Below the pieces are notes generated by a model. It did no database searches. It was not told the DNA's origin and worked only from the letters and a program-made list of their open reading frames with translations. The position numbers were made by a program, and so were the translations under genes. A DNA stretch of 64,000 nt, from the IMG/VR virus record IMGVR_UViG_3300010352_001543. One strand, given 5' to 3'. Position 1 is the first letter of the stretch. Every line of letters begins with the position of its first letter. Source of the stretch: a virus. Its lineage: Duplodnaviria > Caudoviricetes. Shown piece after piece: positions 40,140 through 44,734 of the stretch.

Positions 40140-41066
40140 TTATTTTACAAATACTTTGCCACTTACATGACAAACTGTCCGGACATATTCCTCTGTGAAA
40201 TCTTCTTCATTGTCAGCGCAGTAGTAATTTTTCTTCACTGAAATTGGACCATCTTCTAATGTTTCTAAATAGTTTCCAACACAATAAAAACTTCCATCTA
40301 TCTTTTCGGTTACACCTTTTAAACTTGTTAATTTGTTATTATAACAAGCATAATCACCATCAACAAACAGTGGACCATTCAATATTTCTGTTAATTGATT
40401 ATCTCCGCAATTAAATTCTCCTTTAACTTGTCGCGGAAAATTAGTGGAATATTTTAGATTGTTTTCGCTACAATTGAAATCTCCAGAAATGTAACCAAAT
40501 TGAATAGGTAATGTATCTTCATAGTATCTTTTAATCTTAACATCGCCATGAACATGACAAACACCATTGGTTATCTCAAAAGTTCCTTTAACCCAAGATT
40601 TTATCAATTTAGTTAATGTAACATCTGCTGGTATAAATATCTTAGAAGGGTCTAAATGGTTACTTTTTAAAATCTCTTTTACTCTGCTTGATACATCCCA
40701 GTTGGTATTATCATATCTATATCTACTTTTAGACCAACCATTAGACCCATTAGCATACGCTTTAAACATCCCATTAGCAAAAACAAAAACAGCATAAAAA
40801 TCTGTTATTATTTTTTCTTCTTCTCTATCTACATAATTATTCACTACAATATAGTACTCGGTAGTTTCTAATTGTAAAGGTGAGCTATCTAAATTATAAT
40901 CTTTGAATAAACCACCGAATGTTGTTTTATTATCTATCAAAAATTGTCGAGCTTCGTCTTGTGATGTTGGATGAAAAATAAGCAAAGTGTTAGATTTATA
41001 CACTATTGGAAGATTATTTTTAGTTACAATTAACTCTTCATTTATTATAGTTGAAATAGTTTTCAT
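40140..41066 (-). CDS. LRR-like repeat protein (G.F.C..N.L..L...P repeats) with leader MKTISTIINE
   Basis: About five 22-aa repeats in the C-terminal half. Confidence 0.75.
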   Translation of the reverse strand: MKTISTIINEELIVTKNNLPIVYKSNTLLIFHPTSQDEARQFLIDNKTTFGGLFKDYNLDSSPLQLETTEYYIVVNNYVDREEEKIITDFYAVFVFANGMFKAYANGSNGWSKSRYRYDNTNWDVSSRVKEILKSNHLDPSKIFIPADVTLTKLIKSWVKGTFEITNGVCHVHGDVKIKRYYEDTLPIQFGYISGDFNCSENNLKYSTNFPRQVKGEFNCGDNQLTEILNGPLFVDGDYACYNNKLTSLKGVTEKIDGSFYCVGNYLETLEDGPISVKKNYYCADNEEDFTEEYVRTVCHVSGKVFVK

Positions 41067-41092: not shown

Positions 41093-41188
41093 TTAATTAC
41101 AATGACCTGTGGTTCCGCCGCAATGTCCGCTCATTATTGTTTCGATAATTTTCGAAATTTTTCTTAATAATTTGGTGTACATTTTCAT
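41093..41188 (-). CDS. 31-aa peptide MKMYTKLLRKISKIIETIMSGHCGGTTGHCN, candidate RiPP precursor
   Basis: ATG overlaps the radical SAM stop (ATGA); GC-richer core with a duplicated GHC motif; below the ORF-track length cutoff. Confidence 0.65.
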   Translation of the reverse strand: MKMYTKLLRKISKIIETIMSGHCGGTTGHCN

Positions 41189-42045
41189 CTCCATTGATTA
41201 GTTAAATTGCCATTTTCATAAATAACTCCATATTTATTTTGTCCTGGTCTGCTTAATAATTTGCTTACTACCTTAACACCATCCATAAACGATGCTTTTA
41301 AAGTTTCTTCACATAGAAAACAAGAACGTTTCAAAAGTAGCGGAGTTCTTAAACCTGGTATAATTTTGGTAGTGTCCAAAAAAGACTGACAACCATGATA
41401 AAAAGGTGAGCCTAAATCTATTCCGAATGTCTTTTCAAATGAAACGAAATGATTCTTACCGTGTTGAATTTCAGAAAGTTTAATCTCATTAAATCCCATT
41501 TTATCGTAATGTAACAAGCAATTAGTTATATCCTCTTTTGTATATAAGTGAGGTTTTACTATATTCAAATTGATTCTTATTTTTTCCTTGTTGGGTAATG
41601 AATCGTAAAATTTTTGCCTATCATATTTTGATTTTACTTTCCGAATGTCATCCGCTACATCTTCTTTGTAATGTTGAACGGAAAGATTGATTCCATCTAA
41701 ATTTTCCATTAGTTCAACAAATAAATCGAACCTGTCTTTACATATTTTCGGAACGGCCGTAGTGACATAAATTTTAAGGTTGGTTTTTTCCTTGATTTGT
41801 TTTACACAGTCCAGCAATTCAGGTAAATACAAACAAGGTTCTCCTCCTAAAAATAAGACATCATCATATCCGGATTGATTTTCAACTATTGTCTTTACGA
41901 TTGCACTTACATCCGGTTTATAAATACCTAAACCATCGTATTTCAGATCAATGCAATGATCACATCTATTGTCACAAGCGCTGGTGAAATGCACATCGAA
42001 AGAGTTGTACAAACCATCACAACAATTTTTCTGTAATTTTTTCAT
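41185..42045 (-). CDS. Radical SAM enzyme
   Basis: CDNRCDHC (CxxxCxxC), FLGGEP, INLS; extra Cys in GCQ and SCFLC. Confidence 0.9.
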   Translation of the reverse strand: MKKLQKNCCDGLYNSFDVHFTSACDNRCDHCIDLKYDGLGIYKPDVSAIVKTIVENQSGYDDVLFLGGEPCLYLPELLDCVKQIKEKTNLKIYVTTAVPKICKDRFDLFVELMENLDGINLSVQHYKEDVADDIRKVKSKYDRQKFYDSLPNKEKIRINLNIVKPHLYTKEDITNCLLHYDKMGFNEIKLSEIQHGKNHFVSFEKTFGIDLGSPFYHGCQSFLDTTKIIPGLRTPLLLKRSCFLCEETLKASFMDGVKVVSKLLSRPGQNKYGVIYENGNLTNQWR

Positions 42046-43283
42046 CGTTGGACCATGAAACTTTTGAATTCATTACCTATATGAACAAAATATGAACCGT
42101 TAGGTAAATCTGAAATATCTTCATCTTTATTTATATCAATTTGCTTAACCTCTTCTCCATAAATATTGAATATCGGAACCTTCAAATTTTCAAATTCATT
42201 AGTAAATATTGTTATTTTGTCAATTGCTGGGTTTGGAAATATCTCCGCTCTATCTTTTATTATATGATTCACGCACATACGAATGTTGAAGTCTGATAAT
42301 TTAGCCCGGAACATCCCTGAAGGAGAGCCAAACGCATAAACATAGTCTCCATTAATAATCAAATTTTTAATATTGATATTACTCATTCCTTTGGTTTGTA
42401 TCCAAGTATAACCCTTATTTCCGGTTGCCCAAACACCAGTTCCCATTGTAGCAACAAATAATCTATTTTCTGAATCTGTTACTATTGATGATATGTATTT
42501 AAGTTTAATATTTTTGTTGAGATAATTAAATGTTTTGCCGTTATCTATACTCGAGAACACCTTTCCTAACCTCGTACCCAAATATAGTATAGAATCCGAT
42601 AAATTTGTTGACCTTATACCATCTGCCAATTTTATACCATCGACTGATCGTAATTTTAGTAAATCCCAACTAGATTGAATGCTTTTCGAATAATATAAAT
42701 ATACTTCGTTTGAAGGTCCTTCGCTTGCTGGTAAATTCATATAGACGCCGTTTTTAGTCATTGTTATCGTTTCGATATCTAATGGAAGATTATCATCGGA
42801 ATACATCCAAACCCATTTATCACCATCAGTAAGACATTTAGAATATACCTGAGTGCCATTAGATAAACCTTCTAACAATATAACTACGTTGATGTCATCA
42901 ACGGCTATTGAAGAAATTCTCCAATGCAATAGTTCTTTATTAGAAGAACACCATTTTAAATTTTCCCAGCTACCGCCTAAATTAGTCGATACCCATAACT
43001 TAGTTGTGTCACCAGTTGTAGCAACAAATAAATTATTTTTATATACTTTTATTGAACTTACTGAATGATTGAAAGATTCAATTATTTTTCGATTCCAAGT
43101 TTTCCCATCATCAGAGGAAACAAACAGTCCTGTTTTTGTTCCGATAACAAGATTGTTATCTATAGAGGCCATACACCTAATTTCCGTTTTTGATATCTCG
43201 TTGTTTAGTATTTCCCATTGAGCGTTTGCTGTTGATACACAGACACAAATAATAGCGAATAGCAAAGTTGTTAATTTTTTCAA
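42042..43283 (-). CDS. Secreted BNR/Asp-box beta-propeller protein with T9SS type A C-terminal sorting domain
   Basis: Signal peptide ending ANA-Q; S.D.G.TW repeats; IFPNPA...IFNIYG...DISDLPNGSYFVHIG...F.V.R. Confidence 0.85.
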   Translation of the reverse strand: MKKLTTLLFAIICVCVSTANAQWEILNNEISKTEIRCMASIDNNLVIGTKTGLFVSSDDGKTWNRKIIESFNHSVSSIKVYKNNLFVATTGDTTKLWVSTNLGGSWENLKWCSSNKELLHWRISSIAVDDINVVILLEGLSNGTQVYSKCLTDGDKWVWMYSDDNLPLDIETITMTKNGVYMNLPASEGPSNEVYLYYSKSIQSSWDLLKLRSVDGIKLADGIRSTNLSDSILYLGTRLGKVFSSIDNGKTFNYLNKNIKLKYISSIVTDSENRLFVATMGTGVWATGNKGYTWIQTKGMSNINIKNLIINGDYVYAFGSPSGMFRAKLSDFNIRMCVNHIIKDRAEIFPNPAIDKITIFTNEFENLKVPIFNIYGEEVKQIDINKDEDISDLPNGSYFVHIGNEFKSFMVQR

Positions 43284-43294
43284 TTTGATGTTCC

Positions 43295-44734
43295 TTAAAT
43301 AATAAATTTATAAGCAATATATTTTCCGTCTTGAAGCGTATAAAAAATATACATTCCGTGGACCAAATTTTTCCTAATTAGTATGTCTATTGGTGTCCAT
43401 GAATGAAATCCCGAATCCAATAATTCTCCATTCATTGAAAAACACCACCAGGTTGTTTCGGATGTTTCGTTTTGTCTTAATTCAAGCGGAAGCACTACAT
43501 AAACACCACCATCCACGATCTCGGCAAATATGCTTTTTGTTTTTGAGAAAGTTGTTTCGTCCTTAACAGTTTGCGTTACTCCGTTGTTATAGATAAGTTT
43601 TAAATTTATGCTATCTTTTCTAATTTTTGATATATCTATTTTTAATTTTTCGTTCTCTTTTTTTAGTTCTAAGTTAATAACGTTTAAACTGTCATTTTTA
43701 TCAGATAAATACTCATTTAAGGAATCCTGTTCATTGTATTTTTCTTTTAACTCGTTTAATCTCGCTAAGGTCCGTTCACAACTATCCCTGAAAATTATTC
43801 CTTCTTTTATTGCAACTTCACAAGGATTACCAACTGTGAATTTGGCCATCTGAACAATTCGGAAATTTCCGTCATCAACAACACAATCTATATTATATTC
43901 ACCATTTTTATTGAATTTAACAGTAGCAGATTTTCCATCAAAGTAGTTGAAATCATTTACCAAAGCATTATCGAAATACGTGACAATTTTTACATATTTA
44001 AAATTGGAAGATTTCTCATATTCAATTATTTCATTGGTCCCGATTTCTCTTTGTCCCCACTTATTCAAGACTTTGAGAAAAACCTCTTTTTCTTTATATG
44101 GTATCGTTGGAGTTTCACATACCACTTGAACCGGATTATCATAATATAATTGGAAAATTGCAGGATTTTTGATGTTTCCATTACTAAGTGGCATTGTCAT
44201 AACGGATTTGTTTTCCGGGATGGTATATGTTTCCCAACGTCTCCATGAACTTCCATTATCGATTGAATATCTAAGTGTCATTTCATCCGGAGCTTCTGAT
44301 GGGTCAAATTTGACATAAAATTGATGTTCTGAATTATTGAAAATTGTGTCAGGGTATGAGGCAAATGAAAACTTATCTGAGTATTTACAAACTACGCTAA
44401 ATGTATTACTATTAACCCATTCGTTATCAATCTTACAAAAAATTCCAATTTTTGTAACTCCTGTCTCTTTTACTTTGAATGTAAATTGAACTGGGTTGTT
44501 TATCCATACGGTAGGTTCTGTTAAATTTTTCCAAGTTGTTCCGTTATTCACCGAGTAAGCAAAATAATACATGGAACTTTTTGAAGGTACATCATTTTGA
44601 TATTCGATTGTGTAACTTCTGCCAAAAAAACATTCGGTAGGAGTTGTAATAAATTCACCAGCTTTGACAGGTTTTGTGCATGCTACTATTAATGCTATAA
44701 TTGCAAAAATCAACATCATTAATAATTTTTTCAT
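43295..44734 (-). CDS. Secreted multi-domain beta-rich protein with coiled coil and degenerate T9SS-like C-terminus
   Basis: Signal peptide; YS.(N/D)NG..W boxes; FSMNGELL...L..GMYI......YKFII. Confidence 0.65.
   Translation of the reverse strand: MKKLLMMLIFAIIALIVACTKPVKAGEFITTPTECFFGRSYTIEYQNDVPSKSSMYYFAYSVNNGTTWKNLTEPTVWINNPVQFTFKVKETGVTKIGIFCKIDNEWVNSNTFSVVCKYSDKFSFASYPDTIFNNSEHQFYVKFDPSEAPDEMTLRYSIDNGSSWRRWETYTIPENKSVMTMPLSNGNIKNPAIFQLYYDNPVQVVCETPTIPYKEKEVFLKVLNKWGQREIGTNEIIEYEKSSNFKYVKIVTYFDNALVNDFNYFDGKSATVKFNKNGEYNIDCVVDDGNFRIVQMAKFTVGNPCEVAIKEGIIFRDSCERTLARLNELKEKYNEQDSLNEYLSDKNDSLNVINLELKKENEKLKIDISKIRKDSINLKLIYNNGVTQTVKDETTFSKTKSIFAEIVDGGVYVVLPLELRQNETSETTWWCFSMNGELLDSGFHSWTPIDILIRKNLVHGMYIFYTLQDGKYIAYKFII

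Follow-up and report, generated by a model that had tools for sequence, protein, structure and literature searches.

Gene organization at the locus

The window analysed here is a stretch of 64,000 nucleotides from the IMG/VR virus record IMGVR_UViG_3300010352_001543, which spans 161.6 kb in full (estimated 71% complete, 30.7% G+C), belongs to a T4-like jumbo phage and holds a single copy of each of the two genes described below. Both genes lie on the minus strand. The gene at 41185..42045 (-) encodes a radical SAM enzyme of 286 aa, as delimited by the ORF list, Pfam, homologs and an AF2 model, and the gene at 41093..41182 (-), stop codon included, encodes a peptide of 29 aa, as delimited by the sequence, the ORF list and homolog comparison. 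The original prediction had described a candidate phage RiPP system with a 31-aa peptide whose start codon overlaps the enzyme stop. The overlap between the TGA (41185-41187) and the ATG (41186-41188) of the small ORF is visible in the sequence, and the 31-aa frame, starting at 41188 and ending at 41096 with its stop at 41093-41095, does exist; an in-frame ATG at 41194 would even give 33 aa. The length needs correction, however, since homologous peptides begin with M-[FYW]-T-[KR], which places the conserved start at the ATG of 41180-41182, 2 nt past the enzyme stop. ATGs occur upstream of this start because of the enzyme's conserved ...W-R codons.

The enzyme start ATG in turn overlaps the stop of the preceding gene (ATGA). 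The product of this upstream gene (42042-43283, minus strand) is an Asp-box/sortilin-like protein of 413 aa that carries a T9SS sorting domain at its C-terminus (Por_Secre_tail, 7e-11); the gene is itself preceded by one for a 479-aa secreted-looking protein (43295-44734, minus strand). The Asp-box gene is not conserved beside the pair at other loci. Because the phage carries T9SS cargo, a Bacteroidota host is indicated. On the other side, AATATATAC directly follows the peptide stop, just before a gene (40140-41066, minus strand) for a 308-aa protein whose C-terminal half consists of repeats of about 20 residues (G-x-F-x-C-x-x-N-x-L-T). The repeats look like leucine-rich repeats, and the protein matched nothing in Pfam, PHROGs or PADLOC.

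A small and distinct radical SAM family

The SAM-cleaving [4Fe-4S] cluster motif CxxxCxxC (C24, C28, C31; 41953..41976 (-)) is invariant in 79 family members compared down to 23% identity, together with C9, G67-G68-E69-P70, P99, E192, C219 and C242; D255 and K258 are nearly so. Extra cysteines outside CxxxCxxC, pointed out in the original prediction, are indeed present. They comprise C8-C9 (42019..42024 (-)), with C9 family-invariant in two enzyme alignments; C219 in a G-C-Q stretch (41389..41391 (-)), family-invariant in the family alignment; and C242-F-L-C245 (41311..41322 (-)), where C242 is family-invariant and C245 is conserved only in the clade with GHC peptides. The alignments suggest that the three extra invariant cysteines, of which C9 and C219 are each proposed as ligands, hold one auxiliary cluster, perhaps with an open iron, and that C245 serves as a fourth ligand in the GHC clade only, both being inferences from sequence conservation alone.

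Family-level annotation of the enzyme is generic. Pfam returned Radical_SAM (3e-11, 44 bits against a cut-off of 29.5) and Fer4_12 (3e-6) and nothing else; PHROGs returned generic radical SAM families (E 3e-8); and all 18 NCBIfam matches at E 0.1 were sub-threshold, including a TatD-linked radical SAM family (32 bits against a cut-off of 130). A SPASM domain was found neither by Pfam at E 0.1 nor by SPASM-bearing NCBIfam models, which scored far under their cut-offs. Pfam likewise gave no match to an RRE/PqqD-like domain, and the first barrel strand begins just 15 residues from the enzyme start. The names attached to homologs by JGI ('organic radical activating enzyme', 'PFL-activating enzyme') are generic COG labels.

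The search recovered 951 homologs that are 64-81% identical and 284-290 aa long. Since only 307 clusters out of 1.84 billion have representatives that match the enzyme at E 0.001 or better, the family constitutes a small, distinct branch, and its neighbours in the ESM Atlas are 100% viral. In one distant member, P0170 (695 aa), the family domain follows another, unrelated radical SAM domain in the same chain, making it a double radical SAM protein. A 179-aa 'HxsC-like' radical SAM protein of IAS virus, a crAss-like phage (L011:2968-3507), encoded between an RNA ligase gene and small genes, was excluded as a family member, as it matches query residues 21-160 only.

The AF2 model of the enzyme is confident (pLDDT 95.1, pTM 0.91) and places a hairpin (220-223, 236-239) followed by a helix (253-264) in its C-terminal part. 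Fold searches recovered the general radical SAM barrel with a C-terminal extension, with SkfB, MoaA and BtrN aligning through residue 286. In these model-based comparisons no single relative stands out, as viperin, MoaA, SuiB, GDGT-MAS, PFL-AE, CteB, ChlB and SkfB all fall within Z 15-17.6. By sequence profile, the closest solved relatives of the enzyme core are viperin-like (E 2e-17), over positions 16-188 only. A fold search of BFVD found no close viral relative (identity <= 25%, TM <= 0.62).

Anatomy of the peptide

The peptide divides into a leader-like half of residues 1-18 (41129..41182 (-)), delimited by the peptide alignment, which starts M-Y-T-K and forms a basic amphipathic helix, and a core half of residues 19-29 (41096..41128 (-)), in which the alignment sets out G-H-C, a 4-residue Gly/Thr linker, a second G-H-C and one last residue. 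This division into a basic amphipathic half and a tail with two GHC units is the one originally predicted. In 29 aligned peptides, H, C, G, H and C are invariant, and their conserved G, H and C codons make use of all synonymous forms (GGA/GGG/GGT/GGC, CAT/CAC, TGT/TGC), so selection acts on the peptide as a protein.

Across 38 distinct HC peptides of 25-63 aa, the first Cys lay 17 residues from the leader Thr in 23 peptides and 18 residues from it in nine, and exactly one residue followed the last Cys in 36 of the 38. The stretch between two HC units ranged from 3 to 14 residues, and most peptides carried two units (33/38), the remainder four (5/38). Mean net charge was +4.1 for the leader and -0.6 for the core. 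A conserved leader with fixed spacing and a hypervariable, repeat-expanding core give the peptide, as far as alignments can tell, the look of a RiPP precursor. No NCBIfam model matched the peptides, and searches of the peptides and their long counterparts against Pfam and PHROGs yielded nothing significant. We rejected a T4-type capsid-targeting leader, which would show an I/L-x-E cleavage site, because the Glu in the I-I-E of the window peptide is missing at that position from most homologs.

The pair recurs in unrelated phages

A wider scan collected 71 loci, 67 of which belong to the family (the radical SAM genes at L092-L095 are unrelated, and these loci were not counted). We found a Cys-motif peptide or protein directly downstream of the enzyme in 63 of the 67 viral family loci, where the enzymes are 31-79% identical; a search of homologs' 3' flanks for small HC-repeat ORFs had been suggested as a check in the original prediction. 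Among the first IMG/VR loci, with enzymes 64-77% identical, all seven had a small ORF directly after the enzyme, and all seven ORFs followed the same plan, with M-[FYW]-T-[KR], a basic helix and two HC units, the last one C-terminal. A peptide also lies beside representatives at 55, 49, 46 and 40% identity, in 5/6 metagenome contigs and in each of the six MAG contigs having a 3' flank. The cassette-bearing contigs L012-L017 come from MAGs labelled Deltaproteobacteria, Lachnospiraceae, Clostridium, Mycoplasma and Spirochaetaceae, but they are most likely of phage origin and were mis-binned with bacterial genomes. No partner was detectable at L068, L076, L087, L088 and L025 (four viral loci and one metagenome locus).

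The pattern HC-x(2-14)-GHC-x(0-3)-stop occurred 47 times in the 3' flanks of radical SAM genes and nowhere else in six-frame translations of 410 kb of related loci. Translating the 64-kb window in six frames yielded a single occurrence, and the whole 161.6-kb record likewise contained just one. On these counts, enzyme and peptide are not paired by chance. An all-against-all comparison of flanking ORFs revealed no other gene shared among eight loci, though their enzymes are 60-80% identical; because the flanking genes are unrelated, enzyme and peptide constitute a mobile two-gene cassette. No protease, transporter, immunity gene or regulator travels with the pair, as judged by Pfam at the window and by the eight-locus neighbourhood comparison; the absence of RRE, SPASM, protease and transporter had been noted from the window alone and is borne out here.

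This constancy weighs against the notion that the small ORF is an independent phage protein, membrane-active or regulatory, which merely shares its transcript with a radical SAM gene of no related function. A leader forming a basic amphipathic helix, and phage genomes dense with unrelated small genes, both fit such a protein, but it would hardly keep its adjacency in 63/67 loci while the other neighbours all change. Together with the existence of one fusion and the clade and co-folding results below, this leaves the notion with almost no credibility in our eyes.

A separate gene, with one exception

The frame of the peptide relative to the enzyme differs between loci, with gaps of -1 to +71 nt, and one locus (L040) carries two tandem copies of the peptide gene. 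We could thus dismiss the GHC tail as a frameshifted enzyme C-terminus, since the peptide has its own start and the enzymes all end in ...Y-E-N-G-x-L-x-x-W-x. Long enzyme homologs found in the homolog search were likewise rejected as tail fusions, all of these long ones being N-terminal over-calls. An apparent fusion at L038:3290-3450 proved to be a 1-nt homopolymer frameshift (A5 instead of A4 close to the enzyme 3' end), and at L083:2501-2953 the peptide leader follows directly on enzyme residue ~126 owing to an internal deletion, in either a decaying cassette copy or an assembly artefact.

The original prediction would have been refuted had homologs carried the GHC tail as the enzyme's own; its own ATG and variable frame and gap make it a separate gene, with P0125 the sole exception. 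This protein (47% identity, 346 aa, from one 3-kb contig) runs in frame past the usual enzyme end into a helical linker, then H-x-C and a terminal G-H-C, with no internal start codon before the linker; it is the only representative fused in frame without a Met, and in its relative L073 a similar tail forms a separate overlapping ORF. P0153 (361 aa, 35% identical), whose C-terminal extension resembles a MerR/excisionase-type helix-turn-helix and ends in C-H-G, may be another fused form. The P0125 fusion ties enzyme and peptide together functionally. It does not tell substrate from subunit, because fusions of an auto-modifying enzyme to its core exist among RiPPs, borosins being such a case.

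The main rival explanation is that the peptide is a detachable enzyme subunit that supplies auxiliary-cluster ligands or binds metal, perhaps in the manner of a small electron-transfer or cluster-donor module, while the true substrate is something else, e.g. a nucleotide. A gene placed downstream and translationally coupled suits a stoichiometric partner better than an abundant precursor, an in-frame fusion exists, and an auxiliary site with just three invariant cysteines could be completed by a Cys or His of the peptide. A structural subunit, however, should keep its length, and here the units grow from two to four to eight, the linkers range from 3 to 14 residues and the leaders from 9 to about 140. 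Two tandem peptide genes at one locus, and a whole class (GGCG) without any His, are equally awkward for it. We regard such a subunit as unlikely, subject to the structural and family evidence presented below.

Peptide classes follow enzyme clades

Beyond the GHC peptides, the partners fall into several classes, most of which retain the leader motif hydrophobic-T-K/R-hydrophobic. Cores of the L077 group contain G-C-H ... G-C-H at the C-terminus, and the peptides at L023:1825-1887:+ and L024:2377-2436:+ are 20-21 aa long with three or four Cys. In a clade whose enzymes are 39-46% identical, the partner is a protein of 90-125 aa in which a helical leader is combined with three to eight units of the G-G-C-G type and the final residues are G-G-C or G-R-C (one such protein is L061:3391-3717:+); cores of this GGCG class hold up to 8 Cys. 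In Lak megaphages, with an enzyme of 34% identity, a search for Cys/Gly-rich C-termini detected the next gene as encoding a protein of ~160 aa (L009:3892-4389:+), which ends in S-G-G-C-G, 8-11 residues and S-G-G-C.

These long forms raise the alternative that the Cys-motif tail marks a protein matured for a structural or virion role, of which the short GHC peptides would be minimal tag forms. The motif is C-terminal in 90-166-aa proteins of both Lak phages and the 39-46% identity clade, in keeping with a tag. None of the long forms matches a structural family in Pfam or PHROGs, however (the best, baseplate wedge, reached a non-significant E of 0.053), the window peptide is only 29 aa long, the cassette is not tied to any particular module, and the CXXX-repeat maturase model is absent from the NCBIfam matches. 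A virion role is therefore very unlikely in our judgement.

Mapped onto the enzyme tree, the peptide classes required 12 changes, compared with 34.6 under shuffled labels, and no shuffle did as well. The classes thus appear to be specific to enzyme clades, with the proviso that the tree is a quick one and that relatedness alone yields clustering; the tracking of class with clade is again difficult to reconcile with an independent, merely co-transcribed protein. Enzymes of the His-containing classes carry G11, S15, D17, D25, T95 and Q194 at strand ends and in the cluster loop, whereas those of the His-free classes have Q, E, Q, P, I and F at these positions; the Lak enzymes show the Q/E/Q pattern, as in the His-free classes. 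Such covariation is what would be expected if the core enters the active site, although the difference may reflect a single evolutionary event.

A predicted dock for the leader

We co-folded the enzyme and the peptide, each with its own alignment, together with SAM and two clusters, as had been proposed for checking the pair. The complex scored an ipSAE of 0.68, compared with 0.01 for the best of three controls, with individual runs at 0.70, 0.07 and 0.68; the runs share at least 47% of contacts, and the partner pLDDT is at least 56. In the calibration, 58 of 80 solved complexes scored this high, compared with 2 of 110 mismatched pairs. These calibration counts hold only roughly, because the input of own alignments and riding ligands differs from that of the calibration. 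Radical SAM enzymes have been solved in complex with their leaders in SuiB, CteB and ChlB, and the pass may partly be due to likeness to these structures.

Confident contacts in the predicted complex involve Y, T, L and R of the leader and the following helix turns, which lie on enzyme residues 243-263 (a strand plus helix 253-264; 41257..41319 (-)). The first S-G-H-C of the peptide also packs against the enzyme, and residues 243-245 touch the peptide. A score so far over the controls would not be expected of an independent protein. For a detachable subunit, it is a point in favour that the predicted interface adjoins C242/C245.

Comparison with known systems

The enzyme contains both the CxxxCxxC and the SAM-binding GGE motif of sacti- and ranthipeptide maturases (AlbA, SkfB, CteB, PapB), and, as in those systems, an adjacent gene encodes a Cys-containing, precursor-like peptide with a conserved leader and variable core. 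The ranthipeptide/SCIFF systems CteB/CteA and PapB/PapA are alike in placing a radical SAM gene beside a short, Cys-rich precursor of this build, and in those systems an open iron of an auxiliary cluster is believed to take up the substrate Cys; CteB also matches the phage enzyme in fold (Z 16.0, rmsd 4.4, 233 aligned). The phage enzyme differs, however, in being 286 aa long rather than about 450, in lacking SPASM and RRE and in having only three extra invariant cysteines, and its peptide matches no SCIFF or other NCBIfam model. The phage cores consist of H-C/G-C repeats at the extreme C-terminus, and the family is found only on viral contigs. The sactipeptide enzyme SkfB (Twitch domain) resembles the phage enzyme in fold (Z 15.1, rmsd 3.2, 218 aligned); in place of a full SPASM it has one auxiliary cluster, set in a short C-terminal domain, an arrangement that the phage enzyme would share if its putative auxiliary cluster is real. 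Its Cys-centred thioether chemistry on the ribosomal peptide SkfA would be a further likeness, given the chemistry inferred for the phage pair. In contrast to the phage pair, where the leader is predicted to bind the enzyme's C-terminal domain itself and nothing else travels along, SkfB carries an RRE at its N-terminus and is encoded in a larger operon that also includes export and immunity genes.

Viperins and pVips are of similar size and are the closest solved relatives by sequence (E 2e-17) and by fold (Z 17.6), and the pVip models find the enzyme as well (PADLOC, 38 bits, core of the enzyme only), which lends the subunit explanation with a nucleotide substrate some support. Family cut-offs were missed by far (NF038283, 34.1 bits against 180; TIGR04278, 18.7 against 450), which counts against it. 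Viperins hold one cluster and act on nucleotide triphosphates, whereas the phage family has three more invariant cysteines and an obligatory peptide neighbour.

The second-best NCBIfam match (E 8e-8) was TIGR04100 (rSAM_pair_X; Haft), which we take to describe a small, SPASM-less radical SAM enzyme whose partner is a short protein with a Cys motif at its C-terminus, a similar arrangement to that of the phage pair. The phage enzyme is not a member, since it scores 32.1 bits against a cut-off of 262, and paired families of the TIGR04100 type are bacterial, unlike the viral family described here. His-Xaa-Ser systems were not matched either (HxsC, 14.9 bits against 267.9; HxsB, 13.1 against 370), and the peptide has H-C units in place of the H-x-S repeats of HxsA. 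The same applies to glycyl-radical enzyme activases such as PflA and NrdG (NrdG2, 24.7 bits against 131; YjjW activase, 22.3 against 250). Of the CXXX-repeat maturases (TIGR04114/TIGR04115), TIGR04115 was not among the 18 NCBIfam matches at E 0.1, and their targets carry a Cys at every fourth residue, unlike the variably spaced H-C/G-C units of the phage cores. Overall, the enzyme reaches no curated family threshold, the peptides match no model, and a full-text literature search found no description of the family. Another phage radical SAM enzyme, which acts on DNA, is different from the one studied here (PMC8989533).

Proposed mechanism and implications

The candidate phage RiPP system put forward in the original prediction is supported, in that homologs carry the peptide and the GHC tail is a separate gene. 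Recurring in dozens of unrelated phages, the pairing probably represents an undescribed virus-borne system that makes a chemically modified peptide. We consider it probable, from the analyses combined, that enzyme and peptide are a RiPP-like enzyme-substrate pair with Cys-centred chemistry, although no modification has been observed and the chemistry rests on analogy alone. Points against this reading are the missing SPASM and RRE domains, the viperin-like nucleotide enzymes as nearest solved relatives by sequence, the one low-scoring co-folding run and the five loci at which no peptide was detected. An enzyme-substrate relation is favoured because of the conserved leader, the ruler-like spacing, the hypervariable and repeat-expanding core, the tandem precursor genes, the clade-specific cores, the active-site covariation and the predicted leader dock.

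In the mechanism that we propose for such a pair, the N-terminal helix of the peptide (aromatic-T-K/R-hydrophobic-hydrophobic-R/K) would dock on the enzyme's C-terminal domain at 243-263, as predicted by co-folding. The steps beyond docking are inferred. The 17-18-residue spacing would serve as a ruler by which the first H-C unit is brought inside the barrel. This unit would then have the SAM-cleaving cluster (C24/C28/C31) on one side and, on the other, an auxiliary [4Fe-4S] cluster with C9, C219 and C242 as ligands, joined by C245 in the GHC clade. There, the 5'-deoxyadenosyl radical would take a hydrogen from the core, with a Cys-centred modification to follow, and the second, C-terminal unit could be handled in the same way. 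The modification is probably centred on Cys because Cys is the one constant across peptide classes, and the most likely form would be a thioether cross-link of the sacti/ranthipeptide type, with the substrate thiolate on the open iron of the auxiliary cluster; this link is our best guess for the chemistry. Since the pair is accompanied by neither a protease nor an exporter, its product is likely to retain the leader and to function within the infected cell. A Cys/His cross-link and an anti-defence or signalling role remain guesses for which our data offer no support.

A broader possibility, which we hold only tentatively, is that these phages encode a virus-restricted class of ribosomal peptides. 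A minimal enzyme, lacking both RRE and SPASM, would read the leader by its own C-terminal domain and install a hitherto unseen Cys-centred modification (e.g. His-Cys or Gly-C-alpha-to-sulfur) on the C-terminal H-C/G-C units, and the metal-binding or redox-active product would be used in the infected cell, for instance against host defence.

To our knowledge, viruses have so far yielded very few systems for ribosomal peptide natural products. The present family is invisible in current phage annotation because gene callers miss the peptide genes. At about 950 bp the cassette is compact, and it is widespread, its carriers ranging from 55-kb phages to the 550-kb Lak megaphages of the gut; the pair is under strong selection while its surroundings change. 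With just two genes, it is well suited to the discovery of new radical chemistry on cysteine and, if the predicted dock is correct, exemplifies a new mode of leader recognition without an RRE. It also raises the question of what a phage would gain from a modified His/Cys peptide inside an anaerobic host.
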